Source of the DNA: a virus
Taxonomy: Duplodnaviria; Caudoviricetes
IMG/VR virus record: IMGVR_UViG_2513237354_000022
Span: 18,379 to 82,378 of that record
Length of the DNA stretch: 64,000 nt
Direction: 5' to 3' (one strand)
Part shown: positions 8,826 to 63,106 of the stretch, piece after piece
Layout: every line of letters begins with the position of its first letter
Numbering within the stretch: the stretch's first letter is position 1
Position numbers and translations under genes: made by a program
Notes under the pieces: generated by a model
The model's input: the letters and a program-made list of their open reading frames with translations, nothing else
The model's database searches: none
What the model was told of the DNA's origin: nothing

Positions 8826-9708
8826 TAGCCCGAGACGCTTCATAACTGCCTCAAACATCCGCTCTCTGTTGATTGTGGATATTTCCACACCGCCCTTGGT
8901 AATTTTCGTACCGGCATAAGCAAGTAGCCCAACTGAAGACAGCTTTGTTGAGTCCTGCATGACTGCGCGGCCTATACCTTCACCGTTGCACCGTGGACAT
9001 TCAGGATTAGGATCGTGCGTGTGGTCGTAGCCGTACCCACCTGCATCCCGAGGCTCTTTTCGTTTCCGCTCAAGTGCCTCATAGCACTTCTCTTCAAACT
9101 CAACGGCATCACGCACTGGTACTGATGGCCAAAGCCCCAACAGTACCGACATGCGCCACGACGATATTGCGAGATTTCGTTGGCATCGAAGGTGGCAAGC
9201 TGCCAGGCCTTTTCCAGCACCTCATCAGCCGACCCAAGCGTGCGCATAATTGAGGCTTTTTGCTGCTGCGCAATTGACTGCGCAACTGAAGTTTTCTGAA
9301 GCAACTGATAGCCAATTTGTTCTGCGCTTTTTTTACTGTAGCCAGCGCGTAAAGCAGCCTGCGTGGCATTGCTATCTTTGAGATATTCCGCAACGAAAAG
9401 GCGTTGCTGGTCAGTAAGTCCATTACCATGGATAAGCTTTTCTGCGCATTTATCTGTATGCGCAGTGCGCAGTCTTTTCTGCGCATTTTTTTGCGTACTT
9501 TGCGCAGATGGCTTTTTTACGTAGCGACGCGCTGATACATAATTAAGCCCCTGCGCCTCACACCAGTCTTTCGGGGAGATACCGGTTTTTGCATGTGCGG
9601 ACAGGAACCGTTGCTGAAGTTCGCCCCAGTCCGGTTTTGCCATTGATTAACTCTCCGTTGAAGAAGGGTAATTCAGAATGCCTGCACTTTTTTTTAAGGG
9701 CACCTGCC

Positions 9709-10359: not shown

Positions 10360-10977
10360 TCATGCGCGACGCCGGAAGGCATAACTGCCTATACCCTCTC
10401 TGCCAAGTTCAGTTTCTGCGGTGTTGTGCTCAGTACAGTCAAAGACCCGGCCGCCAAACCAGCGCAGCAGGCCGTCATGAGTCCAGTACCAGATATGCTC
10501 CGTCTTACGGAAATGGCGTGATTTCAGGATAGCATCTCCATCGGCAAAAATCGGCACCGACACGAATACCCACTTTTCAGCTTTTGCTACGGCAACGTCC
10601 GGGCGGTCAATGTGCTCCACCGCGTCCCACAGGGAAAGTGCCGGGTAGCGTTCGGCGTACAAATCAGCCCACAGACCTCGCTGTTTCAGCCAATCAACCC
10701 CGGCGGGATTCACGTCATAGCCGCGGGTATTGGGCCGGGCCTCAACGAACTGGCCGGCACCGATGCCGACATCCACCAGCGGTCCATCATAATGGCGCGC
10801 CACCAGCTGAATGCGGGCCTGCGTCAACGCATGCCCCATCGGCGTGTCGGCCATCTGCTGATAGCGGGAAAAATAGTGTTCGTCATACGGGCGGTTTTGC
10901 GGTACCGGAAAATACCCCATGCCCAGCGCGGGCAGCCAGACCAGCCCGTGTTTCAGTTCGTCAAAGAACGATTCCAT
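10360..10977 (-). CDS. Class I SAM-dependent methyltransferase (cassette copy 1)
   Basis: LVDVGIGAGQF motif I, GYDVN, SLWDAVEHI; homologous to 41802-42416. Confidence 0.85.
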   Translation of the reverse strand: MESFFDELKHGLVWLPALGMGYFPVPQNRPYDEHYFSRYQQMADTPMGHALTQARIQLVARHYDGPLVDVGIGAGQFVEARPNTRGYDVNPAGVDWLKQRGLWADLYAERYPALSLWDAVEHIDRPDVAVAKAEKWVFVSVPIFADGDAILKSRHFRKTEHIWYWTHDGLLRWFGGRVFDCTEHNTAETELGREGIGSYAFRRRA

Positions 10978-11824
10978 GCAGCCACTCGTGAAGTTTGTCG
11001 TCAAAATTGCTTATGCGCCGGTCACAGTCGTGATCTGCCCGCATGCAGCGGCAGTAGTTATCGGGCATCGCCCAGCGGGTGTGGGATAAATCCATTGCCG
11101 GATCCGTTACAATTTCCGGCGCGTTATGCCCGCCACGACCGCCCGCTACCACAAACAGCGGTGTCTGATACGCGATAGCCATAGGAACCGAAAACCCTAC
11201 CGGAGTGACCACGCAGGCGGCACGCACGTAAAGGCTGCACAGCTGCGTCAGCGTCAGCTCGCCGTGGTGAAGTTTTAAATCAGCCGCGGGTTCGTCGCCT
11301 ATTATCCATTCCATGCCGGGAACGGTATCGGCCACGCTTACCACGAAAAAGTGCTGGCGCAGCCGCTGTGCGGCGCGTACCAGATACTCAGGATTGGGAT
11401 TACGTGAAGCGCTGGCCCACTCTGTGCGCACGGTTGAAGGCCGGATGACCGCAACGGATCTGTCTGTCGGTATGGACGGGTGCAGATCGTTAAACTGCGG
11501 CAGGTCAAACTGCAGCGGGCCGTTCACGCCAAACTGACGCCGGAACGCCGGGATAATGCCGCCAGCAGACAAATCAGTCGGGCCGTATCCGATGCGCTTT
11601 CTGACGCCACCGCGTGGTACCGGATGGAAGACATAGCGCGACCGGAGTTCGTTTTTCTCCTGGGTGCGCAGGTGCGTACCGCTGCGGACGCATTTCACAT
11701 TGAGGCCGCGATACAGTTCCGGCCAGCAGGTCCGCACATATGCGCCGGGGAAGTGGCGCAGGAACGGGCGCTGGTAGATGGAATCACCCAAGCCCAGCAT
11801 TCCTTCAAAATAATACGTTGTCAC
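10961..11824 (-). CDS. GT-B glycosyltransferase, GT9 (heptosyltransferase)-like (cassette copy 1)
   Basis: N-terminal GLGDSIYQRPF and C-terminal LTLTQLCSLYVRAACVVTPVGFSVPMAIAYQTPLFVV follow the GT9 pattern; homologous to 42322-43263. Confidence 0.65.
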   Translation of the reverse strand: MTTYYFEGMLGLGDSIYQRPFLRHFPGAYVRTCWPELYRGLNVKCVRSGTHLRTQEKNELRSRYVFHPVPRGGVRKRIGYGPTDLSAGGIIPAFRRQFGVNGPLQFDLPQFNDLHPSIPTDRSVAVIRPSTVRTEWASASRNPNPEYLVRAAQRLRQHFFVVSVADTVPGMEWIIGDEPAADLKLHHGELTLTQLCSLYVRAACVVTPVGFSVPMAIAYQTPLFVVAGGRGGHNAPEIVTDPAMDLSHTRWAMPDNYCRCMRADHDCDRRISNFDDKLHEWLHGIVL

Positions 11825-12357
11825 AGCACGTCCTCAGGTCGGGCTCGCGGAAAACAGGTCAGCACCGTGTGGCGCGAGCAGTTGATGATGCTGACCGACT
11901 GAAGGCTGTCCGCCAGACGCTGAAACTCACCCTGCCAGCGCCGGGTGCTTTCGGCGTCAGGATTTTTAAGCCCGTCAGGGTGATCCCCATGCCAGTGCGT
12001 GCCGTATTCCAGCGAGCAGTCGTAGCCCAGCAGGATGATTCGCTCAGCGCCCAGATGGACAGCAAGTTGAATGGCACGCTGGCCGGAGTTGAAAGAGTCG
12101 CTGTCGGACGGCCGGAACAGATTAATGTCGTAGCGCAGATGCGCCCGCCCGCTGACCGTCCAGCGTTGCGCATCTGTAGCGAGTGCGGCGTGGTGCCTGT
12201 CCCACCAACTACAGTCGGCAGCAAAGAGATAATGGCATGCGGGGATCAACTGCCAGCTGGAGTTAACGGCGATAACGGGGTGAACTGAGTTTACGGCAAG
12301 ATCACAGTCAGAGCGCGTCAGCGATGGACCGCTGGCAATGCAGATTACAGAATTCAT
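11821..12357 (-). CDS. WaaZ/Maf(DUF115)/CstII-fold putative glycosyltransferase (cassette copy 1)
   Basis: CIASGPSL, VIAVNSS, FAAD, NSGQRAIQLA, IILLGYD, HWH and IINCS motifs; homologous to 43257-43808. Confidence 0.6.
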   Translation of the reverse strand: MNSVICIASGPSLTRSDCDLAVNSVHPVIAVNSSWQLIPACHYLFAADCSWWDRHHAALATDAQRWTVSGRAHLRYDINLFRPSDSDSFNSGQRAIQLAVHLGAERIILLGYDCSLEYGTHWHGDHPDGLKNPDAESTRRWQGEFQRLADSLQSVSIINCSRHTVLTCFPRARPEDVL

Positions 12358-12690
12358 TAAAGACGGTCCGTTGTGCCTGGGTTTAAACAAAATGCGCATA
12401 AATGAGATCTGTTATCATCTTCAATTCTGACCCGGGAGGCATTCAGTTTGGTTTCCCACACAAAAAAACACCGCCGCAGATTACTGCGCGCATTAGCAAA
12501 AAGCAGAAACTTTCTTTTACTTTCAGGAACAGAGCATTGCCCCGTCCGGCAGAAATACATTTCCACAACGTCGGATAACGTTCCTGTCATCATTCATGTT
12601 ATTGATTCTGATGATGCGGACGGTTAACGACTGAATTCAGGCGCGAGGCTGTCGCTATCGCAGGCGCGCCGTCAGTGCCTGCTTTAACAC

Positions 12691-13845: not shown

Positions 13846-14313
13846 TCAATCTCGATTGGTGACAATCTGTCTTATATAGTCCTGAAGATAGCTTATTTTT
13901 TGTTGGTCGCTGATGATGCCTGCTCGGATATCAAGAATGTTTTGTCGAGAATCTGAAGAGAATTCGACGGCGGCTGCATAGCCCAGGCTGCGGGTTGCTG
14001 ACGCTGAGCCGGTACCGGACACGGGGCATTTTGCGTGGACGTACATGCGGCGAGTACCATCGGCAAGCTGACGGCTAAGAGCATCATTCTGAGATTCGGC
14101 AGCACTGAGCGCCTCCGTGTGGGTTTTATCGAGTGCGGCCAGTTTCTGCTGGCGCTCCTGAATGTCGGTAATGGTGTCGAACTGTTGCCTCGTAATCTGA
14201 TATGCAGCACGATAATCCTTTCGCCAGGCGACGGCTTTATCGTGATAGTGGTCAGCGGCCCAGCCCAGAGAGAGAACAGCGACTGCCAGTGCAGCAATAA
14301 GGTATTTATTCAT
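13846..14313 (-). CDS. Rz-like i-spanin
   Basis: N-terminal TM, coiled coil and RRMYVHAKCP motif of the lambda Rz family. Confidence 0.85.
   Translation of the reverse strand: MNKYLIAALAVAVLSLGWAADHYHDKAVAWRKDYRAAYQITRQQFDTITDIQERQQKLAALDKTHTEALSAAESQNDALSRQLADGTRRMYVHAKCPVSGTGSASATRSLGYAAAVEFSSDSRQNILDIRAGIISDQQKISYLQDYIRQIVTNRD
13893..14087 (-). CDS. Rz1-like o-spanin lipoprotein embedded in Rz
   Basis: MMLLAVSLPMVLAAC lipobox; Pro-rich; alternate frame inside Rz. Confidence 0.75.
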   Translation of the reverse strand: MMLLAVSLPMVLAACTSTQNAPCPVPAQRQQPAAWAMQPPSNSLQILDKTFLISEQASSATNKK

Positions 14314-14930
14314 ACCTTGAGCGCCACCAGCGCAACCTGATATCTGGCTTTCCGATCCTCAAGGCCATTGGCACCGCCATTAATAATCTTCGTGATCGCC
14401 TCAATATCACCACCATGCTTCAGGCAACCCTTTGAGGCGTAAAACCATGCAGCCGAACGGGCGGCATACTCATCCTGTTCCAGCAATTGCGGAATTAACA
14501 GCAAATCGGCACCCAGACCAGCACCACAATCCCGGTAATTGTCGTGGCCGGTGATCTGTATCAGGCCACGGCCACGATAATTCCAGCCGTCATTTGATCC
14601 CGGATAACCGTTACCCATTCGGTTTGCATAGACAATATTTGCTATTGCCTGCTGGTTAGCTGCGTGTTCAGTGGTGCGTCCGTATTTCTGAGCGCTTTCT
14701 GCGTCGAAATATTTCCCAAACGTAGCCAGCAAACCATCAGCCGAATAATTCAGATTCTCGACAATGCGGGTGAAACCACCGGACTCATGCCCTACCTGAG
14801 CGATAAACTTTGCCTGATCGTCAGCGGAGGTAATGCCAAACTCAGTCATTGCCGCATCAATTGGCTGAAACCAACGCGCAGCTAATTCGGCGCTGATATT
14901 AGCCGCCTTCTGAAACTGTGATTTATTCAT
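14310..14930 (-). CDS. Endolysin, glycoside hydrolase family 19
   Basis: AQVGHESGGF, ENLNY, YRGRGLIQITG, INGGANGLEDR. Confidence 0.92.
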   Translation of the reverse strand: MNKSQFQKAANISAELAARWFQPIDAAMTEFGITSADDQAKFIAQVGHESGGFTRIVENLNYSADGLLATFGKYFDAESAQKYGRTTEHAANQQAIANIVYANRMGNGYPGSNDGWNYRGRGLIQITGHDNYRDCGAGLGADLLLIPQLLEQDEYAARSAAWFYASKGCLKHGGDIEAITKIINGGANGLEDRKARYQVALVALKV

Positions 14931-15253: not shown

Positions 15254-15437
15254 AGTCACCTCTGGAACGGGGCGCCGTGTGAGAATAAAAAATCCCCGAA
15301 TATCCAGGAGCGGCAAAGGGGAAAGGCGTTTCACTAAATTGACCTGTTAGCGGCCTTAATATGAGAAAGCCCCTGCGAGTGCAGAGGCCTTAAAAAAATA
15401 AAACCCCACCGAAGTGAGGTTTCTTAAATAGTGGGGC

Positions 15438-15610
15438 GGCTTTGTTGAATAATAGGTAATCATTCTGTTTTGTCTGCACTGTTTTGGTAGAAAACGCTGA
15501 TGCCAGACAGAACACCGTCATACGCAAGCATGTAACGCATTGATTTTATGTTATCTGAAACAACCGTTTTCATAGTACCACAGCATAAAATCCATTTATT
15601 CAACAAAGCC
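15438..15610 (-). mobile_element. 173-bp MITE with IS903-type ends, copy 1
   Basis: Terminal IRs GGCTTTGTTGAATAA / TTATTCAACAAAGCC; reverse complement of 61825-61997 with one mismatch seen; no transposase. Confidence 0.88.
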
Positions 15611-29028: not shown

Positions 29029-30189
29029 TTAGCGAACCACGTTGATCTGCACATCGGCATAATGAACTGCGCCAGCCAGCTTACAGGCCACCTGAATTAA
29101 CGGTGCTTTGCGCGCTTCGCGGTCGGCCTGCGCCTGTTGCACCAGCGGCTGCGCATAGACGTAATAGCCTTTGGTCAGCGTATCGCCGGAATTCAGTTGT
29201 CCGATAGGGCCACCATTCCACACGCCAGCCGCTACCAGACCGTTCGTGACGGACTGATCCATGGACTGTTCAACGTTGGAAAGCAGACGGGTCACACCGG
29301 CATCAGTCTGCGGAATTTTGGTGGTGCTGGTGTAAAGCAGGTTATAGAGGTTGGTCTGAACGTAGTTCTGCAACCAGTCGAGCCCGTGGCGCTCGTCGAA
29401 GAAGTCACCGTTTGCCATGACACCCTGTTGCAGGATCGCCGTGTCGTTGGCGTAGTACACGAACACGTTCGCATTCTTCGCATCCACAGCCGCCGCCTGG
29501 CCTACCGTCAGCGTTTCGTAGGTTACGCTCGGTTCCTGTTTGAATTTCAGGGTAATGGTGGTATTGCTGCCGTTGAAATTGACAGTAAAAGCGCGACCGA
29601 AAGCAGAAACCGCCGCGTAAGGGCTGCTGGTGGAATACTGAATAAAGGTACGGGCATACTTGCCAGCCTTTAATTTCGATGCAACATCGGTCGTCGAAGT
29701 CGTGCTGATAATCTCAGCGTCACCAGAGGTCACACCAAAGATACGGCTAAGGCTTGACGCCTCGATAAGCTTGGCAACCTCAATCACGTCATCAGCATCA
29801 AGCACATCGCCACCTGCGACAACATCATCAGCGACAACCAGCCCATACCAGTTGGTATATTGCAGGCAGGCATTAACAGCTTGCACAATGGTTTCCACGC
29901 TTCCACCTTCGGAAGATGTCAGCGTCTTCGCCCAGCGGCCAACATAAACCTGCGTCGGCTTCGGCGACTGGCTGAAGAAAACCTGCGCCGCTTCATATTC
30001 CGGGCTGTCGACTCCGAAGTCCTCGCCAATGTCCTCAACGGACGCATAAAGGCGAACGCGCTCCTGCACCGGAATGACAGTGGAAGAACCGAGGATCAGC
30101 AGCGCGCCGAAGTTACGACCAGTAGCCGCTTTCGGCGAGATGATCACATCAACGTTTACAACGTTGGATACAGGTAAGCCCTGCGTCAT
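29029..30189 (-). CDS. Tail sheath protein (DUF3383 type)
   Basis: [40 protein letters not shown]. Confidence 0.88.
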
Positions 30190-32461: not shown

Positions 32462-33403
32462 TCAGATACCGTCCACGTAGGACAGGGTTTCTTTGTACAC
32501 GGGCTCAACCGCACCGAGCTTGCCGTAGTAGGTCGCAATCTGGTACAGACCGCGATACTGGACAGGCACGCTCTGCAACGGCACCAGCGGATAACGCACG
32601 TATTTCTTGTCGTTGGTGTAAGCGACCATTCGGTCTTTACCGCCAACCCCGCGCGCTTTCAGCCATTTGACCGCTTTGATTTCCAGCGGAACGCCATTCT
32701 GGTGGAAAGCGATAGTGTTCACGGCCAGATAGGTCAGCAGTGACTGGTTACCCGCTTCGGAAACCTTACGGCTCGCCAGCAGTGAATACTGCTCTGGTGG
32801 AATGCGCAGATCAGAAGGCACGACGGAATAGCCGGATGCGACCCAGGCATTCGAAAGAATGCTGTTCACGCTATCGAGGATCTCGTCGTTAGTGGAGTTC
32901 GCCCAGGTCTTCGGCGCGTTGTTCAGCGTCACACCGACGAGGTTTGCCAGACCTTTCAGGCCTAGCGCGTCATCACCGATGTAAACCTGCTCGTCGTTAT
33001 CCATCTGCCATTTGAGCTGCATACCGTCGTACTTCTGGGTATCAATCGGGCGACCTACCTGCTGAGCTGCTGCCAGCTCTACAACGGTCCAGCCCAGTTC
33101 CATGCCCCAGAGGTTCAGCGGATTACCGTCTTTACCGATATCAACATTCACGCCTGCGATTGCAGTGGAATCTTTGCCTACCCAGTTTTTACCGTTCGGA
33201 TTTGCGCCAGTACCCGCAGCGCCAAAGCTGGTGTTAGTCCAGCTGGAAATGTCATCTGCGATAGAGACGTCTTCACGCAGCTGGATATCTCGGGTCCAGG
33301 TGTAACCCACCAGCGGCAGGTTCAGCGTCTGGTCGAGTCGCTCCAGCTCCCCGATGAGAAAGGCACCAGAGCCATCAACGGTTGCCTGATCAAAAGTAAT
33401 CAT
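32462..33403 (-). CDS. Major capsid protein (DUF2184 type)
   Basis: 313 aa; FLIGELERLD and DEQVYIGD motifs. Confidence 0.85.
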   Translation of the reverse strand: MITFDQATVDGSGAFLIGELERLDQTLNLPLVGYTWTRDIQLREDVSIADDISSWTNTSFGAAGTGANPNGKNWVGKDSTAIAGVNVDIGKDGNPLNLWGMELGWTVVELAAAQQVGRPIDTQKYDGMQLKWQMDNDEQVYIGDDALGLKGLANLVGVTLNNAPKTWANSTNDEILDSVNSILSNAWVASGYSVVPSDLRIPPEQYSLLASRKVSEAGNQSLLTYLAVNTIAFHQNGVPLEIKAVKWLKARGVGGKDRMVAYTNDKKYVRYPLVPLQSVPVQYRGLYQIATYYGKLGAVEPVYKETLSYVDGI

Positions 33404-33414
33404 TCGTCTGTTCC

Positions 33415-33918
33415 TTAAATCTTCCAGGAGATTTCTGCATTGCCGTTAGCGTCACCGGCCCCTGTGAATTCGGCGTTGGTCAGCGCCACGTTTTTGCCAC
33501 TGACGGACGTGGACATAAAGCCGCCCAGCGGCACGTCAATGGTTGAATCGAGCGAAACAACCACGTAGACAGGCGCGCCTTTTTTGATGGTACTGGCATC
33601 GAAGCCAGATCCGAGGTTAACGGTCATGTAGCCACGTTTCATGGCGTCGCCCGGGAAGTTCTTATCCGTTCCCACCTGGCGAACCATGTCGGGCTGCGAT
33701 GTGGTCGGATACGGACGAACGTAGATACCCTTCACCTTGTCGGCGGTGTCACCGTCCGCCAGCGGCACGAAAAAGCCGTCAGCGTCGTATTTGCCAGCCA
33801 GACCGTAAGCAGCGAAGGCGTTAGCGGATTTAAGGATCACCGGTTCGACGGTTAAGTCCTGCGGGCGAGAGATAGCCCCGGCAATGCCAACAGGCATCCG
33901 GTACAAATATGCAGTCAT
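33415..33918 (-). CDS. Head decoration/cement protein
   Basis: 167 aa beta-rich protein between protease and capsid. Confidence 0.65.
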   Translation of the reverse strand: MTAYLYRMPVGIAGAISRPQDLTVEPVILKSANAFAAYGLAGKYDADGFFVPLADGDTADKVKGIYVRPYPTTSQPDMVRQVGTDKNFPGDAMKRGYMTVNLGSGFDASTIKKGAPVYVVVSLDSTIDVPLGGFMSTSVSGKNVALTNAEFTGAGDANGNAEISWKI

Positions 33919-37261: not shown

Positions 37262-38889
37262 CAGGCCTGTCTCCCTAGCAGCTCCCAGATGTTCAGGGCT
37301 GAATTCATTGGCGCGTAGCTGATCATCACCGAGTCAGCGAGGTTCGGCGACTTGGTGCCATCAGGCTGTTTATCAACAACGATTTTCCCCACGCCGTTAA
37401 TGGAGTAGGTCGGCTGCGAAAGCTCGATGATGAGCTTGTCTTTGCTCGCCATGGCGCTGCTGATTGAGATGATTTCGTCCGGGTTGTAGGCCATGCCCTC
37501 AACCACGGCGCGATAGGTGTTCTGGAAAAGCTTGCGTAGCCGCCACCAGCTCTGGGCCTTGGCGTTAGCGAAGAAGTCCTTGTTCAGGCGCGCGGCCTGT
37601 CCGTTGTCCCCTCGCACGGCTTCGTCGTCCGGATCAAATACCGCGCCGCTACCGCGAAACGGTGTAGCGAGTATTGATGGTCGGCGCGCAGCGTTACGCA
37701 GTTCGTTAATAGCGCGCGCATCGCCGCGAACACCAGCACCAAGGCCGTCCTCGTCGAATCGAAACTCTTCGAGGTTGTCCTGTTCGCAGAAGCCGAAGAC
37801 CTTCTCAACGGACTGGTAAATGTCGCTGCCCACGCCGGACCATTCCCGCACGTTCTCCAGCAGGAAGCCGTGACGGGTCGAAAAGGCGTTTTTGTCCCGG
37901 CCTTCGTCGGCGACGTCCATCGCGCCCAGTCGTTTGCCCGTTGGCTGAATACCCAGTTTGATATGCGCGTCGACGGCAGCCTGTACCCAGTCGGACGGGA
38001 TCAGGACACCTTCCGCTGATGCGCTGTAGTTCAGGTCAAGTTCCTGCGCCACCACCACCGGATTGTCGATTTTCTCGCATTCCCTGCGATACCACTCTTC
38101 ATCCTTGCGCGGGTCGTTTCGCCAGTGGAATGTGAATACCGGTATTTTCCCGCCGTGACGCTTCTGTGCGAACGGGTTCGCCATGCCGTTAACCGAACTC
38201 AGGTCGATACGGCAGCGGGTGGTTTGCGACAGCGCCGCGTCGATCAGCAGAGGACGCTGGAGGAATGCAGCCTCATCCACCAGGTAGAGCGTGGTACGGT
38301 CACCACGGCCGATATTGTCGCCAGCCTCGCCTTTGATGACCGCGCCAGTATCTGGAAACTCAACGCGCATGTACGGCGCGTGCTTCTTCTCGTCCCACGA
38401 ACCGCGAAACTCAACGGGCAGCGTTTCCACGAACTTGCGCGCCTTCCAGAACAGCGCCTTCGGGTCACCGGTGCTGTCGACGTATTCCTCTTTACGGGAG
38501 CCGAAGCCGATAACCATTTCTTTGTTGAACAAGCAGAGCGAGCAGGCCAGCCCGATCGCCGTCCAGCTGAGCCCCATTTCGCGGCTCTTTTCGGTGATGC
38601 CGTTCTCCAGCTTTTCGCGCCGCTCCATGATCCAGTGAATCCACTCTTCCTGTTTCGGGAACAGCAGAAAAGGGATGGTGACCGGCAGGCCATAATCGAT
38701 GTTACGTGGGTCTGTCGTCATGCCCCAGTCGATAATGAACTGGGCCGGGTTGGTGCGGTAAAACTGCTTAAGAGCTGGCAGCATTTCGGGGTTCTGGCGA
38801 ATGCGCTGTAAGCGCTCCATCCGCCATTCAAAAACCATCTGGTAATCAGGGTTCCTGAAATCGAATTCAAACGGGAGAGGCATGATCAC
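37261..38889 (-). CDS. Terminase large subunit (prophage 2)
   Basis: [10 protein letters not shown] Walker A variant, [22 protein letters not shown]. Confidence 0.9.
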
Positions 38890-39359
38890 CCCATCATCTT
38901 GCGGTAAATCTCTGCGGCCTGATCTGCGGTGAGGTTGGTCGTCTCGGTCTTTATCGGGCCGCCATCCTTGCCAGTGCTCTCAACCTTCAGCTTATTGGTG
39001 TAAGCGTCGCCGACCTCTTTCGCGGCCTGCTCGATAAGCTGCGCCGTCAGGGAGAAGTTTTTCATCCCCTCGGTTTTGGTTGCCATGCGGTCAAGCACGC
39101 GGAGGCGATAGGATTTGTTCGCGATCGGAATGTCGCTGGTTTCGGTCAGGAATCGTTCGCGCGTCGCGTGGAACATCGCGATCCACTTTTTGGCGAGCGT
39201 CTTACCGCTGGCCTTCGTGGGGTCGTGAGATTCAGCCTGCTGGCGGGTGATCTTGATCCCGAATTCTTTTTGGACAGCCTCGACCACCTGCGATGGCGTG
39301 TCATAGCACGCAAGCGACTGAATGATGAAGGCTTTCACATCAGGTTTTAATGCAGCCAT
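38886..39359 (-). CDS. Terminase small subunit (DUF2280 type)
   Basis: [25 protein letters not shown]; [11 protein letters not shown]. Confidence 0.85.
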
Positions 39360-39390: not shown

Positions 39391-40011
39391 TTAAGCCAGT
39401 CGCAGCATGCACGTCCCGCACGCTCTGGCAATATCGAGATGAGCAACCTCCGCTGGCTGATTCGCCGCATCAATCATTTCCTGCACGTCCCGGCTCGCAC
39501 CGTAACGGCGAACCACGCCTACAAACTCTTCAACATCGTGGCCGCGCAGCTTCAGCTTTGGCTGCCCTTCCTGCGTGAACTTCGGCGCGCCAAATTCATC
39601 TGTCGCCTGGCAGATGTGGTAAAGCTCGTGCTCTATCAGCGCGCAGAATTCCAGATCGGAACATTGCGAACAGTAATCGGCGGCCAACGTGATGATGAAC
39701 TGCGGCGCCCTGCCGAACCATTCATACATCTGCTGCTCCATCCGCGCTTTCTGCCATCCCCCAGCCCGCATTGCCACTTCTTCCGCCTGCCCCAGCACGG
39801 AACGCCCTTTCTTCTCGAAAGTGTTCGACGCCCAGAGAAAGCACAGATCCGCTTCAAGCAAATGCTGGTGGTCAGGGTTGTAGAGGTCGCCCTCATCGCT
39901 CAGGATGTGCTGATTCAGCCACTCGCCAACGTCATTGGCGGGCATTATGCTGATGTACGGCTTCGGGTCAGGTGGCATCGTAAAATGCGCTGGTGGATGT
40001 GGTCTGTTCAT
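39391..40011 (-). CDS. Putative phage metallopeptidase
   Basis: LIEHELYH (HExxH) and GHDVEEF. Confidence 0.8.
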   Translation of the reverse strand: MNRPHPPAHFTMPPDPKPYISIMPANDVGEWLNQHILSDEGDLYNPDHQHLLEADLCFLWASNTFEKKGRSVLGQAEEVAMRAGGWQKARMEQQMYEWFGRAPQFIITLAADYCSQCSDLEFCALIEHELYHICQATDEFGAPKFTQEGQPKLKLRGHDVEEFVGVVRRYGASRDVQEMIDAANQPAEVAHLDIARACGTCMLRLA

Positions 40012-40065: not shown

Positions 40066-40251
40066 TCAGTCCCGGACGAACGTAACCTTTGTGGTTATCA
40101 TTCGCCGTACAAGGCGCGTCGCTTCGCGTTGCATTTCATCAATTACTTTTGGCGTCAGCGGCTGATGCGCATATTTGCGCTCAATCTCTGCAAAAATCCC
40201 GTTCAGCGCCTCGCTGTCTGGTGGGATAACTTCAACGTTTAATCGTGCCAT
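40066..40251 (-). CDS. Small hypothetical phage protein
   Basis: MARLNVEVIPPD, 61 aa, follows the spanins and precedes a hairpin at ~40037-40059. Confidence 0.55.
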   Translation of the reverse strand: MARLNVEVIPPDSEALNGIFAEIERKYAHQPLTPKVIDEMQREATRLVRRMITTKVTFVRD

Positions 40252-40510
40252 CGGTTTGTCCTGCCCTGTTGTTCTCGAATGTCCTGATATCAGCCTTATC
40301 CCTGTTGCACTGCGCCAGCGCTGACAGCAGCGCAACATTCAGGTTAAGGCTTGCTCCCCACGTAAACGGGTCGGGTAAATCTGGCTGGGGTGTTTCATCC
40401 GTCAGGCTGGCTGGTAACGGAACTACCGGAACCGGCACGTAGACCGTCCGCGTAGTCGTGCAGCCGCTTAACTGCGCCAGAAGGCACAACACGAACAGCA
40501 CAATCATCAT
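40232..40510 (-). CDS. o-spanin lipoprotein (Rz1-like)
   Basis: MMIVLFVLCLLAQLSGC lipobox; Pro-rich; CNRDKADIR. Confidence 0.8.
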   Translation of the reverse strand: MMIVLFVLCLLAQLSGCTTTRTVYVPVPVVPLPASLTDETPQPDLPDPFTWGASLNLNVALLSALAQCNRDKADIRTFENNRAGQTDGTIKR

Positions 40511-40787
40511 CCGCAACAGCAGCCTTGATATCGTTCTCGGCTCTCTGTGACTCCAGTGCGATCTGCTGCTTGGCATGTTGATTTGTCTCCAGAATGATGT
40601 TCGTTATTGCTACGGTGCGCAGGACATTCGCGGTGATGGTCTCAGAGGAATCAGCGCGCTGTTCTGCATCGTCAGCGCGACGCTGTTCCTCCAGAAACTT
40701 TCCATGGTAGTGATCCGCTGACCAGACAAGACCGCCTGCAATACAGGCGATAAACGTCACAATGAGCACCCAATAACTCATTTTCAT
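40395..40787 (-). CDS. i-spanin (Rz-like)
   Basis: N-terminal TM plus coiled coil, overlapping the o-spanin. Confidence 0.8.
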   Translation of the reverse strand: MKMSYWVLIVTFIACIAGGLVWSADHYHGKFLEEQRRADDAEQRADSSETITANVLRTVAITNIILETNQHAKQQIALESQRAENDIKAAVADDDCAVRVVPSGAVKRLHDYADGLRAGSGSSVTSQPDG

Positions 40788-41398
40788 ACCAGCAGCGCCG
40801 CCCGCGCTTTGTTGTAGCGGATCTTGCGGTCATCAATGCCATTCAGGCCGCCGTTAATGATGCGCGTAACACGAGTAATATCGGCACCGTAGGCCATGCA
40901 ACCTTTGGATGTGAAGAACCAGGCGGCAGAGCGTGCTGCCTGAAGTTCCTGTTCGAGCTGTTCAGGTGAAGTAACGAGGTCTAACTTCAGCGCCGCCCCG
41001 CAGGTGCGATAATTGTCGAGGCCAGTGATTTGAATTAACCCTCTGCCGCGATATTTCCAGCCGTCGCATGGCGCTTTGTTACCCAGGCGGTTGCTATACA
41101 CCAGATTGGCGATGGCATCCTGGCGGGCTGCGTGTTCGGTTGTTCTGCCAAGCGCATCAGCCTGCTGCTGTGTGATCCTCTTTCCGAAGGTCGCCACCAG
41201 CGCAGATGGTGTGTAGTTCAAATTTTCTACTACAGCGCTAAAGCCGTCTGACTCATGACCTACCTGAGCGATGAACATGGCCTGATCCGCTGGCGCTGTA
41301 ATGCCGAATTCTTTCATCGCCGCATCCACTGGCTGAAACCAGCGCGCAGCTAACCCGGCGCTGATACCAGCCGCCATTTGAAATTGAGATTGATTCAT
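40784..41398 (-). CDS. Endolysin, glycoside hydrolase family 19
   Basis: AQVGHES, YRGRGLIQITG, INGGLNG; homologous to 14310-14930. Confidence 0.92.
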   Translation of the reverse strand: MNQSQFQMAAGISAGLAARWFQPVDAAMKEFGITAPADQAMFIAQVGHESDGFSAVVENLNYTPSALVATFGKRITQQQADALGRTTEHAARQDAIANLVYSNRLGNKAPCDGWKYRGRGLIQITGLDNYRTCGAALKLDLVTSPEQLEQELQAARSAAWFFTSKGCMAYGADITRVTRIINGGLNGIDDRKIRYNKARAALLV

Positions 41399-41727
41399 TT
41401 ATTTTCCTCAGTGCTGCCGACTCCGGCACGTCTGGCAACGATAGCGAGCGCCATGTCACGAAGTCTGTCCGCCCCAACAAACCCGACGAGCGCACCAACG
41501 AATGCCCCTGAATTAGCAGGCAACCCTAGGTATTCCAGCAATGCGGAAACAGCCAGCGCGAATATGCCGCAGATTAGCGCGCCAGTGGCGGTGTAGAGTT
41601 TCGGCTTCCCTGCGCGTATGTCGATAAGCGCTGAGATGCCCAGAGCGCATAACCCGGCGTAAACTGACGGCAGATATAGCGCGATCCATTTCATTGTTTG
41701 TTCGAAAATCCCGTGAGTGCTATTCAT
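41395..41727 (-). CDS. Holin, lambda family
   Basis: Multi-TM, GFVGAD; closely similar to 14927-15253. Confidence 0.87.
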   Translation of the reverse strand: MNSTHGIFEQTMKWIALYLPSVYAGLCALGISALIDIRAGKPKLYTATGALICGIFALAVSALLEYLGLPANSGAFVGALVGFVGADRLRDMALAIVARRAGVGSTEENK

Positions 41728-41801: not shown

Positions 41802-42416
41802 CTAAACGCGGCGGAAAGCGTACGAAGCGACGCCCTTACGCCCTAACTGGCATTCGATGGTGTTCTGTTCGGCGCATTCGAAGCCCTGCTCAGCAAACCA
41901 ACCCTTAATACCGTCGTCAGTGAAATACCAGATGTGCTCGTTCTTCCTGAAATGGTGCGAGCGAAGAATGTCTCCGGCATCGGTAAAAATGGGGATCGAC
42001 ACGAACACGTATTCACTGGCCTGCTGTACCGCCAGCTCCGGCTCGTCGATGTGCTCCAGTACATCCCACATCGTCAGCGCGCGCCACTGACTGGCGTAGA
42101 GGTCAGCGAATGCGCCCCGCTCGTTCAGCCAGGCAACGCCAGCAGGATTAACGTCAAACCCAAACGTTCCCGCTCGGGAAGAAACGAACTGACCGGCACC
42201 GATACCAACGTCCAGAACCGGTCCATGATAGTGACGTTCCACCAGCTCAATTCTGGACTGCGTTAATGCGCGCCCGGTTTCGGTATCAGCCAGCAGCTGA
42301 TATTTCGCAAAATACTGCTCGTCATACGGGCGAGATGCCGGAACCGAATAACGACCGATGCCCAGCTCCGGGAGGAATACCAACCCGCTGTTCAGTTCCT
42401 GATAAAACGACTTCAT
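41802..42416 (-). CDS. Class I SAM-dependent methyltransferase (cassette copy 2)
   Basis: VLDVGIGAGQF, GFDVN, TMWDVLEHI. Confidence 0.85.
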   Translation of the reverse strand: MKSFYQELNSGLVFLPELGIGRYSVPASRPYDEQYFAKYQLLADTETGRALTQSRIELVERHYHGPVLDVGIGAGQFVSSRAGTFGFDVNPAGVAWLNERGAFADLYASQWRALTMWDVLEHIDEPELAVQQASEYVFVSIPIFTDAGDILRSHHFRKNEHIWYFTDDGIKGWFAEQGFECAEQNTIECQLGRKGVASYAFRRV

Positions 42417-43263
42417 TCAGCCAGGCCTCGAATTTTGAATCAAAGTTGGAGATGCGTTTGTCACAATGGTGATCCCACGCTTCGCAGCGACAATAATTGT
42501 CCGGTATTGCCCAGCCAACGCGGGATAAATCCATCGCCGGATCGGTGACTATCTCGGGAGCGTTATGCCCGCCGCGCCCACCAGCGACAACGTAAATAGG
42601 TGTTTTGTACGCAATGGCAGCGGGCAGCGCCCAGCCGACAGGCGAAACCACGACAGCTGCATGCTCTACCAGGCGCATCAGCTCTTTGATATTGAGCTCG
42701 CCAGCGTGCATTTTCAGATCTGCTTCTGGTTCTTCACCCACCAGCCACTCTTCCCCGTCCTGCAAATCAGCAACGCTAATCACGCAGAAATGTTTCCGCA
42801 GGATTCTCGATGCGCGCAGGAGGTAATCGGGGTCAGGGTTTCGGGAGTCGCTACGCCATTCAGAACGAACCGTTGCCGGACGAATAACGGCGATCGGCTT
42901 TTGGTGCGTAAACTGCGCCGGTCCAAAGGATGGCAAATCAAGCGCTGCTGGCGTTACACCGAACTGACGGCGCATCGCATCGAATATTGAACCGCGCCGC
43001 AGATCATCCGGACCGTAAAATATTCGCTTCGTCTGGCGTGGTGATGGCGGCGGATAAAACTTTGCGGAGCTGCGGAACTCATTTTTTCGCTGCGTCCTTA
43101 GCGCGGTATCACTTCGGACAGCTTTTACTGGCAGGTCTTCGTAAAGCTCCGGCCATGCCGTCTTGATGAATGTCCCCGCAGGCAGCTGTTTGACGAAAGC
43201 GCGCTGGTAAATGGTGTCTCCCATTCCCAGCATGCCATCGATGTAAATAGGAGGATTCAGCAT
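42322..43263 (-). CDS. GT9-like glycosyltransferase (cassette copy 2)
   Basis: GMGDTIYQRAF; LNIKELMRLVEHAAVVVSPVGWALPAAIAYKTPIYVV; shared C-terminal Cys/His motif CRC...H.CD.RI. Confidence 0.65.
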   Translation of the reverse strand: MLNPPIYIDGMLGMGDTIYQRAFVKQLPAGTFIKTAWPELYEDLPVKAVRSDTALRTQRKNEFRSSAKFYPPPSPRQTKRIFYGPDDLRRGSIFDAMRRQFGVTPAALDLPSFGPAQFTHQKPIAVIRPATVRSEWRSDSRNPDPDYLLRASRILRKHFCVISVADLQDGEEWLVGEEPEADLKMHAGELNIKELMRLVEHAAVVVSPVGWALPAAIAYKTPIYVVAGGRGGHNAPEIVTDPAMDLSRVGWAIPDNYCRCEAWDHHCDKRISNFDSKFEAWLNEVVLSGTEQRVGIPPGAGHRSLFGSGISPV

Positions 43264-43808
43264 GTAACCTCGCTGATCGCCGCTTCAAGAGGTAGACGAC
43301 GAAAGCAATTAAGCGCCGTCTGGCGGCTGCTATTGATGATTTGGACGCTTCCACGCAGCTGCGCCGCAACCCGGGCAAACTCGCCATGCCAGCGCTTTAC
43401 GTTCGCCGCTGTCGGGTTATCGAGAACTGTATGATCGCCGTGCCAGTGGCTGCCGTTCGAGATTGAGCAATCGAAGCCCAGCAGAATGATGCGCTTTGCG
43501 CCCAGCCATTGAGCGAACAGGATCGCTCTCTGTCCCGAATTGAATGTGCCGCTAGTATCTGTCGGGAAGAGGTTCACGCCGTATCGGGTGTGTGCTCTCC
43601 GGTTACATGACCAGCGTTCGGGGCCATCAGGCAGCGCGGGAATGTTCACATCCCACCAGCGCAGATCGCCAGCGTAAATGTGGGTGCATTCCAGTATGGT
43701 TCGCCATGATGAATTAACCGCTATCACAGGAAACCCTGAGCGCGCAGCTATTTGACAGTCAGCGGGAGTAAGGGACGGACCAGAAGCGCAGATGATCGCC
43801 GTGTGCAT
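43257..43808 (-). CDS. WaaZ/Maf(DUF115)/CstII-fold putative glycosyltransferase (cassette copy 2)
   Basis: ICASGPSL, VIAVNSS, YAGD, NSGQRA, IILLGFD, HWH, IINSS. Confidence 0.6.
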   Translation of the reverse strand: MHTAIICASGPSLTPADCQIAARSGFPVIAVNSSWRTILECTHIYAGDLRWWDVNIPALPDGPERWSCNRRAHTRYGVNLFPTDTSGTFNSGQRAILFAQWLGAKRIILLGFDCSISNGSHWHGDHTVLDNPTAANVKRWHGEFARVAAQLRGSVQIINSSRQTALNCFRRLPLEAAISEVTC

Positions 43809-43838
43809 ACGTTATTCACCCGGTGGCATTGAGCCAAT

Positions 43839-43868
43839 AAAAAAGCCCCTGCATTTCTGCAAGGGCTT
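43839..43868 (-). terminator. Late-leader terminator (tR'-like)
   Basis: AAGCCCTTGCA-GAAA-TGCAGGGGCTTTTTT on the minus strand. Confidence 0.75.
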
Positions 43869-43948
43869 AAATGTGGTTCCCACCGCTCCGCGCAAGGCAT
43901 CTCCGCTGGTGGGTAAGCTCTTTCGCCTTTGACGTCCGAGCATATCTG

Positions 43949-43977
43949 AATTATGCAGTTTCAAAACTCGCTTTCAA
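43949..43977 (-). promoter_or_regulatory. Putative late promoter (pR'-like)
   Basis: TTGAAA-N17-ATAATT overlapping the end of the Q-like gene. Confidence 0.5.
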
Positions 43978-44634
43978 GTCTTTTTCGCAAGTTTTTGCAT
44001 TTTCGAAGCCTAATTCATCTTTTAACGTGAAGAAGACAGCAGAGTTGAACAATTCAATACACCAGCGCACACGGTCAATACATTGCTTTTCGGTCAGAAA
44101 CGGCGCGTAGTAATACTGCATCCATCGTGCCATGCCATTGATGGTTTTCCGCCACGTGTAATAGTCCTTCCCTATCTCATACACGGGATTCCCCGGCTTG
44201 AAGGACTTCAGGATGATAGCCTCCATGAATGCAGCTTCCTCCTGGTCTCCGGCATTGCCGATCAGGTCAGAAAGCGATTTCTTCGGCCAGATGATGGCTT
44301 TCGCCTGCTCAAACAACGCATCGCCGGTATAGCCAATTTTACGCAGACCAGACAGCACGGTAGCGATCCGCTCCTGCTGCTCGCCAGTCCAGCCGGTTAA
44401 TATCATTGACCACATACCACCGCCACCAGAAAGGTGCTCTGTCCCGCTGCCCCCGTACATGCCACCCCAGTGGTTCAGCAACGAACGAACCCAACGGCTT
44501 TGCGATGGTGTCAGTCGGCGATATTTCCCCAGGTAAGATCTGCGTGGAGCTGCTGCCAGCGTCACCCAGGCGTTTTGCGGGTTGGTACGCTCAACAGACG
44601 CTTTCTGGTAATTGTTAATGTCGTTGCGTGTCAT
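43951..44634 (-). CDS. Late antitermination protein Q-like
   Basis: Position after rusA and before a promoter, terminator and lysis genes; LTPSQSRWVRSLLNHWG...RVRWCIELF. Confidence 0.7.
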   Translation of the reverse strand: MTRNDINNYQKASVERTNPQNAWVTLAAAPRRSYLGKYRRLTPSQSRWVRSLLNHWGGMYGGSGTEHLSGGGGMWSMILTGWTGEQQERIATVLSGLRKIGYTGDALFEQAKAIIWPKKSLSDLIGNAGDQEEAAFMEAIILKSFKPGNPVYEIGKDYYTWRKTINGMARWMQYYYAPFLTEKQCIDRVRWCIELFNSAVFFTLKDELGFENAKTCEKDLKASFETA

Positions 44635-44990
44635 TCTGCATTCTCCTGGATAATGATCTGGCCTGTCTCTCCCCATCGTTTCGTTACCCTGCCGTCCCAT
44701 ATCCGACAGTCATCATCGAATATCGCATCCAGTAACGCTTTCTCCAGATTGTCCTTATCCGGCTTAGTCTGGTGAGGCTGTCCGTCATGCTGCTGACGCT
44801 TCTTCTTACTCCAGCTTTTCGGCATGGGCAGAACGAATGTTATGTGGTAACCGGATTCCGGGAGGGTTATACCAAGACGGCGCACCTGAGCTTTAAAGAA
44901 CCAGTAGGCGGAGGTTTCTGGCCTGCTGCGCCAGCGATCGCTTCGGGTCATGCGAGGCTTGGCGACAGGAGTGATATCGTAAATTTTCAT
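44631..44990 (-). CDS. rusA: RusA-family Holliday junction resolvase
   Basis: KPDKDNLEKALLDAIFDDD motif. Confidence 0.85.
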   Translation of the reverse strand: MKIYDITPVAKPRMTRSDRWRSRPETSAYWFFKAQVRRLGITLPESGYHITFVLPMPKSWSKKKRQQHDGQPHQTKPDKDNLEKALLDAIFDDDCRIWDGRVTKRWGETGQIIIQENAE

Positions 44991-60641: not shown

Positions 60642-61793
60642 AATAACTGATCCTAATACCGCTACACTTTAGCCAGCCCATGTTTTCCCCCGGGGAATGG
60701 GCTGACGGTATTCATAAAGTGATGGACCTTTTTCAACAGTTGCCACATTGAACTGCACTGGTGATTTCGGGTTATTGTCTCATGAAGCGCCTGCCACAAC
60801 CGTTCGACATGATTGACCCACGGCGAGTAAATCGGCTGGTAAATGACCCTGAACTTTGGGTTTGCTTTCAGCCAGCGCAACGTTTCACGGCTTTTGTGGA
60901 TGATGTAGTTATCTACAATGAGCGTAATCGTTTTTGCACGCCGGTATGTCGCCTTCAGATGTTTTAACAGTCTGATAAATAAGGATGAACCTTTACTGTT
61001 TCCACCAACGTAGCTGACTTTTCCCGTACCGCTGTGCAGCGCACCGGCAAGATAGTACTTTTCATTCTGGCCCGGAGTGACAACTCGTTTTTGCTGCCCG
61101 CGTAACTGCCAGTCAGCACCGATTTTCGGGTTGAGATGAATATCCACTTCATCTTCGTAAAACACGGGGTTTTCCGCACTACATTTCGCCAGTGCTTCAT
61201 GGATAGCGACCATTTTTTCTTCTTTGTGTGGGTCACGGATACGCAGTGTCGGCGCGGCTCTCCGCCATACCAGGCCGGCAGCAGGTAACCATCGCCGGAT
61301 GGTTGAAGCATGTAGCGGACAACCGGTGATATCACGGATTTTTATCGCCAGAAGTTCGGTGCTCCAGCGGGAACGCTGATAACCAAAATCGCCGGGAGAA
61401 TGCTTAACAAGCTCACGCAGCAATGCGCAAATATGTTCGAACGGCCAGCGCCTCCCGCGTCCTGACGGTAATGACTTCAGGCCTTCAGCACCAGACAGAG
61501 TGAACCAGTTAATCCAGCGACCAATCGATGAGCGGGCACAGCAGAGTGTTCTGGCAACATGACTGACGGTGTCACCACGATGCAGCATCAGCATGGCGGT
61601 GAGCCGCCGGGCGTGGTTTTTGTCCTTTGTTTTATGGATAGTTTTCTGCATCAGGCGTCGTTCGGTTCTGGGTATTGGTGCTATGATCGACATTGCTCAG
61701 TCCGGCTGGTGATTTGGGATATTCAGCGATTGATCAGATCGCATAAACCGGACTGAGTTCCCTCTAAGGGATCTACTATTCCGAGCAGTTATT
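60642..61793 (-). mobile_element. IS630 insertion sequence, copy 2
   Basis: TA duplication at 60640-60641 and 61794-61795 in CTAG; same IRs as copy 1. Confidence 0.95.
60662..61693 (-). CDS. IS630 transposase (intact)
   Basis: 343 aa; YEDEVD, IVDNY, NHVERLW. Confidence 0.95.
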   Translation of the reverse strand: MSIIAPIPRTERRLMQKTIHKTKDKNHARRLTAMLMLHRGDTVSHVARTLCCARSSIGRWINWFTLSGAEGLKSLPSGRGRRWPFEHICALLRELVKHSPGDFGYQRSRWSTELLAIKIRDITGCPLHASTIRRWLPAAGLVWRRAAPTLRIRDPHKEEKMVAIHEALAKCSAENPVFYEDEVDIHLNPKIGADWQLRGQQKRVVTPGQNEKYYLAGALHSGTGKVSYVGGNSKGSSLFIRLLKHLKATYRRAKTITLIVDNYIIHKSRETLRWLKANPKFRVIYQPIYSPWVNHVERLWQALHETITRNHQCSSMWQLLKKVHHFMNTVSPFPGGKHGLAKV

Positions 61794-61824: not shown

Positions 61825-61997
61825 GGCTTTGTTGAATAAATGGATTTTATGCTGTGGTACTATGAAAACGGTTGTTTCAGATAACATAAAATCAATGCAT
61901 TACATGCTTGCGTATGACGGTGTTCTGTCTGGCATCAGCGTTTTCTACCAAAACAGTGCAGACAAAACAGAATGATTACCTATTATTCAACAAAGCC
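61825..61997 (+). mobile_element. 173-bp MITE with IS903-type ends, copy 2
   Basis: GGCTTTGTTGAATAAAT…TTATTCAACAAAGCC; no target duplication. Confidence 0.88.
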
Positions 61998-63106
61998 TCC
62001 TGGTGGCTCATTTGTCTTTCCACAGCATCTCTCGACCATAATCCCGATTCGATTAAGGCACTACATGCCATAGTCCTGAAACCATGCCCGCAGACTTCTA
62101 CTTTCATATCGTAGGCCATTGTCCTGAGTGCTTTGTTGACCGTGTTTTCACTTATAGGTTTGTCGTCCCCAATAAAACTGATGAACATAAGTTCTTTGTC
62201 ACCACTGATCGAGTGAAGCTCTTCCAGGAGTGCTTTAGCTTGTGTACTTAGTGGAACCAGATGTGGGGTTTTCATCTTTGCCCCTCTTGCAGAATATTTT
62301 ACCCCTTTCAAAGGTTGTCGCTCTCCAGGGATAGTCCACAATGAATTTTTGAGATCGACTTCTGACCAGCGAGCAAATCGCAGTTCACTCGAACGGACAA
62401 AGGTCAGGAGTGTTAACTGCACTGCAATTTGGGTAATGCCTCTTCCTTTATATGCTTCCAAACGATTCATAAGCTCTGGCAATCGTTCCAGAGAACGGGC
62501 AGGGCGATGAACACTTTTAGTGGAAACAACAGCACCAGCGAGGTCGTTTGCAGGATTCTGTTCAATTAAAGCATTGTGAACGGCATACCTCATTACCGCC
62601 GTAATGCGCTGTTGTAAGCGGGAAGCCAGTTCATTGTGTCCTGAAGCTTCTGCTTTTTTCAAAGGAACCAATAAATCACGAGTTTTTAGCTCGCTGATAT
62701 TACGTTTTCCGATGACAGGGAACACATGGGAAACAAGGCTGTTCAAAACAGTTGTTCTATGACTGTCTGACCAGGTTCTGTTACTGGTATGCCATTGTCG
62801 TGCAACTTGCTCAAATGTTAGCAAGCCCTTGCTCTCAATCTTTTGCGCTTTTCGCTTCTCACTTGGGTCTACATGGTTTGCGACAAGCTGACGGGCTTCG
62901 TCTCTTCGTCGTCTGGCTTCAGACAATGAAACCTCAGGATAGACTCCCAGCGCGAGAATTTTCTGTTTACCAGCGAAGCGATACTGAAAACGCCAGTACT
63001 TGGAACCACTTGTGGTAATCAACAGGTGCATACCATTACCGTCGGTCATCTTGACAGGTTTATCAGAAGGCTTTGTATTTCTTACTTTTAACTCTGTGAG
63101 CGCCAT
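61998..63106 (-). pseudogene. P4-type integrase truncated at the C-terminus by the MITE
   Basis: Ends at RQMSHQE; the RN.VRAAY segment with the catalytic Tyr is replaced by MITE sequence. Confidence 0.88.

Follow-up and report, generated by a model that had tools for sequence, protein, structure and literature searches.

Among phages, glycosylated particle proteins are known, to our knowledge, from just a few mycobacteriophages; algal viruses provide the other demonstrated case. The mycobacteriophage case was reportedly described by Freeman et al. in Cell Host Microbe in 2023. In the stx slot of lambdoid phages, cargo genes lie directly downstream of the late terminator tR'. Mycobacteriophage glycosyltransferases modify capsids and tail tubes, according to PMC10877033, which cites Freeman 2023, and the cytoplasmic enzyme TibC attaches heptose to a protein by O-linkage (PMC4358343). 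Here, we analyze three consecutive genes (the trio) in a 64,000-nucleotide stretch (the window; positions 18,379 to 82,378) of the tailed-phage record IMGVR_UViG_2513237354_000022. All three lie on the minus strand and are predicted to encode a Maf/CstII-like (MptE-like, DUF115) core (gene 1, 43257-43808, 183 amino acids), a GT9-fold glycosyltransferase resembling TibC, WaaF, and WaaC (gene 2, 42322-43263, 313 amino acids), and a class I S-adenosylmethionine (SAM)-dependent methyltransferase (gene 3, 41802-42416, 204 amino acids). The best reading of the data, to which we assign a probability of about 0.5, is that the trio modifies a protein of the virion late in infection.

The trio is found in at least three late positions, and the slot between the antiterminator gene Q and the holin gene, which it occupies here, is not specific to it. 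The window holds two diverged copies of the trio, each in a prophage of its own and in a different late slot; the two prophages flank a single tRNA-Arg gene. The genes named above had been called copy 2 of a cassette, and copy 1 does exist, on the minus strand of the neighboring prophage (10360-12399; 55%, 59%, and 61% amino acid identity to copy 2), between the endolysin/Rz genes (13846-14930) and terS (8972-9643). This second slot, between lysis genes and terminase/portal genes, is also used in Citrobacter phage phiNP. The third slot, seen in more distant phages, is inside the structural module: gp10-12 of PAJU2 are located between head-closure and tail-terminator genes; orf7 of D3 follows the capsid gene, and orf12 and orf13 are among connector genes; and Bordetella, Methylophaga, and Cellvibrio prophages show the order TerL, portal, ClpP protease, HK97-type capsid (PF05065), trio, and connector genes. 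P1 possesses only the Maf-like gene, pmgO, in a late operon. Placement of the trio beside capsid and connector genes favors a virion protein as the probable acceptor. In the original GenBank record of PAJU2, only four proteins are annotated as "structural protein" without the word "putative", namely, the capsid protein, the major tail protein, a 692-amino-acid tail protein, and the Maf-like ORF010. This suggests that ORF010 was detected experimentally in virions; as a depositor's label, it serves as a lead.

Within copy 2, genes 1 and 2 overlap by 7 nucleotides and genes 2 and 3 by 95 nucleotides. IMG/VR contains at least 584 relatives. We compared the nearest 80 loci: the trio was complete and in the same order at 79, and the remaining one is cut by a contig end. 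The order is also kept across several proteobacterial classes, the Maf-like protein forms about 2,700 clusters at 50% identity, and the hosts are almost all diderm bacteria. Maf-like and glycosyltransferase parts are joined in single open reading frames (ORFs) at 5 of 25 genomic loci (L101, L103, L104, L112, and L113), and proteins of 501-504 amino acids combine the two parts. Another phage lineage encodes, in a head-tail connector block, a fusion of the Maf core with a TylF-type sugar O-methyltransferase, which suggests that the product is a methylated sugar. On sequence grounds, the three genes are predicted to act in one pathway. At IMG/VR loci L022-L028 and others, the Maf-like gene is 67-73% identical to that of the window, and the glycosyltransferase and methyltransferase genes are 82-96% identical; such unequal identities suggest recombination inside the trio. 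Outside any phage, a Phycisphaeraceae genome (L117, 9194-11599) encodes Maf-like, glycosyltransferase, and methyltransferase parts in one 801-amino-acid ORF, neighbored by genes for a 770-amino-acid protein containing GT25 and a 2406-amino-acid RHS-repeat protein.

Searches of the PDB with the three proteins and their family profiles returned nothing significant. Since no sequence-level relative has a solved structure, homologue alignments and predicted structures were built. NCBIfam contained no model matching any trio protein, and fused glycosyltransferase forms longer than 548 amino acids were not found in our searches, which is weak evidence. A literature search on PmgO, PAJU2, Eowyn, virion glycosylation, and heptosyltransferase retrieved no functional study of the trio genes.

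Gene 1 matches PF01973 with 34.8 bits, a marginal pass of the curated threshold (34.6). The domain is present in most of its homologues, and the protein belongs with PHROG 4603 (E 5.5e-49) and is 37% identical to P1 PmgO. Its predicted structure (predicted local distance difference test [pLDDT] score of 90) is most similar to residues 272-514 of Maf (PDB 5mu5), with Z 14.8, a root-mean-square deviation (rmsd) of 3.4, and 171 of 183 residues aligned. Lower scores were obtained for SteA and for the sialyltransferase CstI (Z 10.5 each), and then for MptE, an archaeal pyrophosphokinase (Z 9.4). The invariant polar motifs of the family, SGPSL, NSG, and HWHGxH, point to a catalytic role. The 183 residues represent the core alone, lacking the N- and C-terminal flagellin-binding domains that flank it in Maf. 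The initial annotation had termed this protein WaaZ-like. For WaaZ of Escherichia coli K-12, hhalign gave a single weak match (probability of 41%, E 2.8e-4, 81 columns in the RAI..LGA.RIILLG.D region); the structural model favors the name Maf/CstII-like core instead. The companion assignments of genes 2 and 3 as a GT9-like glycosyltransferase and a methyltransferase were borne out by GT9 fold matches of Z 15.0-18.3 and by a PF13489 score of 42.1 bits, respectively.

Two deviating arrangements of the Maf-like gene were observed in other phages. A gene seen on one contig only (L089, 2029-3699) encodes a Maf-like core together with Ig-like Big_1 and Big_13 domains as one fusion; it lies between a holin and a lysozyme gene and adjoins a GT2 gene. 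In each of four HK97-like phages, a start codon is missing for the conserved Maf-like N-terminus (around CIASGPSLT), which is found in the -1 frame of a small post-capsid ORF (phage D3, L001, 5691-6409; L111, 9020-9843; L102, 9099-9889; L103, about 9180-9500). In-frame slippery heptamers (CCCAAAG, AAAGGGC, and AAAAAAC) are present in three of the four, and a programmed -1 frameshift is predicted, which would join a small head-proximal domain to the Maf-like enzyme in D3-like phages. D3-like phages also have a small Ser-rich ORF between their capsid and Maf-like genes; it was considered as a candidate acceptor and rejected, its Ser/Ala/Pro tail being an overlapping-frame artifact of the Maf N-terminus around the same CIASGPSLT segment.

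In GT9 enzymes, an N-terminal Gly-Asp motif bears the catalytic base (Asp13 in WaaC and Asp110 in TibC). G13, G15, and D16 are invariant in the family of gene 2 and sit after the first strand of the model. The protein falls into PHROG 6804 (E 2.2e-111), and its predicted structure (pLDDT 92) has TibC as the best fold match (Z 18.3, rmsd 3.0 over 258 residues, sequence identity of ~15%), followed by the GT9 enzymes 3tov, a Veillonella protein of unknown function (Z 17.8), WaaF (1psw; Z 17.1), and WaaC (Z 15.0-15.7), whereas GT-B folds outside GT9 scored about Z 10. At the sequence level, gene 2 had no hit in Pfam, the family profile gave an E value of 1.6 against WaaF, and hhalign gave a probability of 0.6% for WaaU. 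According to DSSP applied to the model, the N-lobe contains only four strands (6-9, 31-35, 46-50, and 77-80), and the family carries an invariant C258-x-C260-x4-H265-x-C267 cluster just N-terminal to the C-terminal helix. The N-lobe of TibC is likewise four-stranded, and its iron finger is a C-lobe insertion with the cysteines C339/342/358/370 (PMC4358343). The four-stranded N-lobe and the location of the Cys3His cluster lean toward TibC. In the structural models, the top fold matches of both putative transferases are protein O-glycosylating enzymes, TibC and Maf, with the lead of TibC lying within the tie margin. The C-terminal ~20-25 residues of the gene 2 product are disordered in the model; this extension results from the 95-nucleotide run of the gene into gene 3 (42322-42416) and is present in close relatives and absent from most homologues, which comprise 285-290 amino acids.

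Gene 3 scored well above the cut-off of 27 bits for PF13489 (Methyltransf_23) and matches PHROG 6564 (E 4e-80). Its glycine-rich SAM motif, DVGIGAGQF, comprises the invariant residues D69, G71, G73, G75, and F77 and the almost invariant I72, and the family is dominated by phage proteins in the ESM Atlas.

In the mechanism that we propose, the trio would be late-operon cargo under the control of Q, and its products would build a glycan in the cytoplasm in three steps. Gene 1 would transfer a CMP (cytidine monophosphate)-activated ulosonic acid, most likely from CMP-3-deoxy-D-manno-oct-2-ulosonic acid (CMP-Kdo), gene 2 would transfer heptose from adenosine diphosphate (ADP)-heptose, and gene 3 would finish the sugar with a SAM-derived methyl cap. 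The acceptor would be a co-produced virion component, with the capsid considered first and tail or decoration proteins next, and progeny particles would exit the cell with a small methylated O-glycan. We infer the donors, the acceptor, the order of steps, and the dependence on Q. Neither sugar-activation genes nor a NeuB-type synthase gene were found in the cassette or in the whole 82-kb provirus record. The lack of sugar-activation genes in the cassette would be explained if all donors are host lipopolysaccharide (LPS)-core precursors or SAM. A NeuB-family ulosonic-acid synthase was absent from three of five trio-carrying host genomes (Pantoea dispersa, P. ananatis, and Citrobacter youngae), and hosts without such a synthase have no CMP-activated ulosonic acid other than CMP-Kdo. 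The donor is hence probably CMP-Kdo and neither pseudaminic nor sialic acid. The nearly complete restriction to diderm hosts fits with the use of ADP-heptose and CMP-Kdo. For the heptose and Kdo supposed in the initial annotation, these findings provide no more than indirect support.

Late expression of the trio is suggested by its regulatory surroundings. Q, a pR'-like promoter, a terminator, the trio, and holin had been read in this order, and we find all of these elements so arranged on the minus strand. Q (43951-44700) was identified by PHROG 753, "anti-termination protein Q-like" (E 1.3e-56), and had no match in Pfam. The pR'-like sigma-70 promoter (43977..43950; TTGAAA-16-CATAAT, 10 of 12 matches) overlaps the Q stop codon, and the tR'-like intrinsic terminator (43833..43868; stem 43868..43843) consists of an 11-bp stem with 6 G-C pairs followed by a T-run. 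The 114-nucleotide leader folds with -45.9 kcal/mol (z = -3.2 versus shuffles). Promoter-like sites (2 found versus 2.3 expected in shuffled sequence) and terminator-like sites (3 versus 3.5) are not more frequent in the region than by chance, and it is their position, their strength, and their near-identity with Citrobacter phage Omnitron that make the pR'-like and tR'-like sites credible. Omnitron has ~91% nucleotide identity to the Q region of the window, with only 2 mismatches over about 175 nucleotides from the end of Q through promoter, leader, and terminator hairpin, 1 of them in the -35 hexamer. The homology stops at the end of the T-run, beyond which the sequences diverge completely. 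As Omnitron keeps the regulatory region and diverges exactly there, the trio is swappable cargo downstream of tR'. Only 35 nucleotides separate the terminator stem from the start codon of gene 1, which makes the trio the first genes after tR'. The equivalence to the stx slot that had been proposed for this position is drawn from established lambdoid biology, and the abundant expression that the initial annotation attached to it is an inference. No sigma-70-like promoter was detected inside the cassette in our promoter scan, and no terminator was predicted in the 74-nucleotide gap between gene 3 and the holin gene.

Omnitron lacks the trio and has a short stretch, a second terminator, and then the lysis genes in its place. 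This stretch (L086, about 5850-6000) resembles a tRNA 3' end (GGTTCGAATCC ... CCA) and precedes the second terminator. Phages with stx also carry tRNA genes after tR'.

Several observations weigh against a function of the trio in virion glycosylation. The fold of gene 1 is also found in pyrophosphokinases (Z 9.4), so that gene 1 may not encode a glycosyltransferase. For gene 2, no more than 1.2 Z units separate TibC, the GT9 protein 3tov, and the LPS enzyme WaaF, which amounts to a tie, and a protein acceptor is not separable from an LPS acceptor by fold alone. The Pfam GT9 profile PF01075 did not match gene 2, and among 47 family members, one reached an E value of 0.11. Moreover, gene 2 lacks the N-terminal beta-barrel of TibC (residues 1-97), the model alignment starting at TibC residue 91. 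Given the missing barrel and the failing Pfam profile, we regard gene 2 as GT9-like and not as a member of the BAHT family. The cassette travels among phages whose head modules are unrelated, a situation in which an enzyme set with a sequence-specific virion acceptor would struggle. Dependence of trio transcription on Q is presumed from the lambda precedent. Our literature search, as far as it reached, turned up no report of a glycan on virions of D3, PAJU2, or P1, and P1 pmgO is dispensable for plaque formation (PMC10695390).

The first alternative is that the trio adds Kdo, heptose, and methyl groups to the LPS core or another lipid-linked glycan, resulting in lysogenic conversion or in receptor masking on lysis debris. 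Such an envelope target would be compatible with the scores of WaaF (Z 17.1) and WaaC (Z 15.7), which are close to that of TibC, with the weak WaaZ similarity of gene 1, with the nearly exclusive occurrence of the trio in LPS-bearing hosts, and with the portability of the cassette between unrelated virion modules. However, genes located behind tR' without a predicted promoter of their own should be silent in lysogens, and LPS made minutes before lysis would constitute a minor fraction of the outer membrane. In D3, PAJU2, and other HK97-like phages, the genes are inside the head-tail block, and the known seroconversion genes of D3 are located elsewhere in its genome. Considering the position behind tR' and the placement in structural modules, we deem LPS conversion unlikely. 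The initial annotation had preferred a late, virion-directed role to steady-state seroconversion, and this preference is supported by the absence of an internal sigma-70-like promoter and by the neighborhood of the trio to capsid, connector, and packaging genes elsewhere.

With a similarly low probability, the target might be neither virion nor envelope, but a host protein or a soluble product; examples would be a modification disarming a host defense late in infection or a glycoconjugate released at lysis. The portability of the trio between unrelated phages, the non-essentiality of P1 pmgO, and the three-domain fusion of Phycisphaeraceae, which is encoded outside any phage and adjoins an RHS-repeat protein gene, would all be in line with this. 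The recurrent location of the trio right after the capsid gene or among connector genes argues for a virion target instead, as does, at the level of a lead, the depositor's label "structural protein" of PAJU2 ORF010.

Glycosylation of phage DNA before packaging, allowing escape from restriction, appears still less probable. DNA is the only target common to all phages irrespective of their structural modules, the trio often adjoins terminase and portal genes, and phage GT-B enzymes are known that add heptose and Kdo to 5-hydroxymethylcytosine in DNA (bioRxiv 10.1101/2023.12.21.572611). However, hydroxymethylase, TET-type, and cytosine methyltransferase enzymes are needed for the known heptose and Kdo modifications of DNA, and neither a cytosine-C5 methyltransferase nor a TET-like dioxygenase or hydroxymethylase turned up among the larger early genes of the prophage, where a Dam-type methylase was the sole DNA-modifying enzyme found. 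Gene 3 encodes a Methyltransf_23 enzyme and not a DNA methyltransferase, and the best listed fold matches of gene 2 are GT9 enzymes, with T4 beta-glucosyltransferase not among them. We know of no hypermodification of P1 or D3 DNA. Equally improbable is that gene 1 stands outside the pathway as a virion-associated structural or nucleotide-binding protein or a kinase, leaving only genes 2 and 3 to act on a sugar: the PAJU2 label (a depositor's lead), the homologue fused to Ig-like Big_1 and Big_13 domains, the fold shared with HPPK and thiamine pyrophosphokinases (Z 7-9), and the presence of a Maf-like gene without a GT9-like partner in P1 and phiNP are outweighed by the score of Maf far above the kinases (Z 14.8 versus 9.4), the invariant SGPSL, NSG, and HWHGxH motifs, and the existence of homologues fused to the GT9-like enzyme or a sugar O-methyltransferase.

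The prophage that carries copy 2 is of the Enterobacter type and looks complete. RusA and HNH endonuclease genes precede Q, and the trio is followed on the minus strand by the lysis genes, beginning with the holin gene (41395-41727; PF05106, E 1e-15; PHROG 126) and continuing with genes for a GH19 endolysin (40784-41398), Rz (40395-40787), and Rz1 (40232-40576), assigned by PHROG 181, 214, and 456 and by PF23793. The same prophage encodes a CI-type repressor, replication protein O, DnaB, and the Dam-type methylase; the large terminase, a portal protein, a Mu-F-like head protein, a protease, a major head protein (32462-33403), and a PHROG 563 protein (33415-33918); and a sheath (29029-30189), tape measure, baseplate, and fiber. 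The major head protein, the PHROG 563 protein, and the sheath are candidate acceptors. The window also has a PHROG 513 "transposase" gene (39391-40011) and a gene for a PHROG 546 protein (38886-39359), which are invariably paired immediately upstream of the large terminase gene in relatives. This pair probably belongs to the packaging module rather than to a mobile element. The window further contains a 300-nucleotide direct repeat of 100% identity (7716-8015 and 60684-60983), with one copy in a 413-amino-acid ORF between terS and terL of prophage 1 and the other in a 343-amino-acid ORF near the far end of prophage 2, and a 176-nucleotide inverted repeat of 99% complementarity (15435-15610 and 61825-62000), previously labeled an IS903-type miniature inverted-repeat transposable element (MITE).

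It is possible, albeit doubtful at present, that many Gram-negative phages, including D3 and PAJU2, attach a methylated Kdo/heptose glycan, derived from diverted LPS-core precursors, to a protein of the virion. If so, the particle surface would chemically resemble the host inner core, with possible effects on particle stability, on sticking to cell debris, and on recognition by host defenses or animal immunity. Such glycans would mean that a widespread feature of phage surface chemistry in Gram-negative hosts has been overlooked, with consequences for phage therapy (clearance and antigenicity), adsorption, and phage-host conflict, and the trio would provide a source of compact cytoplasmic protein O-glycosylating enzymes. 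Virion modification can be tested directly in the cultured phages D3 and PAJU2 and in the inducible-looking prophage of the window.

Among known systems, the true homologues of the trio are gp10-gp12 of PAJU2, orf7, orf12, and orf13 of D3, and PmgO of P1, with identities of 44-48% for the glycosyltransferase, 35-48% for the Maf-like protein, and 37% for PmgO. PAJU2 even shares the gene order of the window trio, but in these phages the genes belong to the head-tail module or, in P1, to a late operon, and not to the Q-holin slot. The likeness of gene 1 to Maf (PDB 5mu5) and to the CstI/CstII sialyltransferases (GT42) is confined to the catalytic domain. Of the BAHT enzymes TibC and Aah (PDB 4rap and 4rb4; PMC4358343), TibC shares with gene 2 a four-stranded N-lobe. 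The Cys-rich C-lobe cluster of gene 2, which resembles a metal site, is Cys3His over about 10 residues, and that of TibC has four Cys over about 30 residues. With stx and other morons in the Q-pR'-tR'-S slot, the trio has in common its position, its presumed Q-dependent expression, and, from the comparison with Omnitron, exchange at the tR' end. Unlike stx, its cargo is a set of biosynthetic enzymes rather than a toxin, and it also occupies other late slots. Virion O-glycosylation in mycobacteriophages reportedly involves phage glycosyltransferases encoded in late or structural operons, host nucleotide sugars, and capsid and tail-tube targets. The trio, a putative glycosylation system, differs from that system in its enzyme families, its Gram-negative hosts, and its inclusion of a Maf-like enzyme and a methyltransferase. 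The trio is widespread, and it would fall within the already known phenomenon of phage-encoded virion glycosylation as a different enzyme set.

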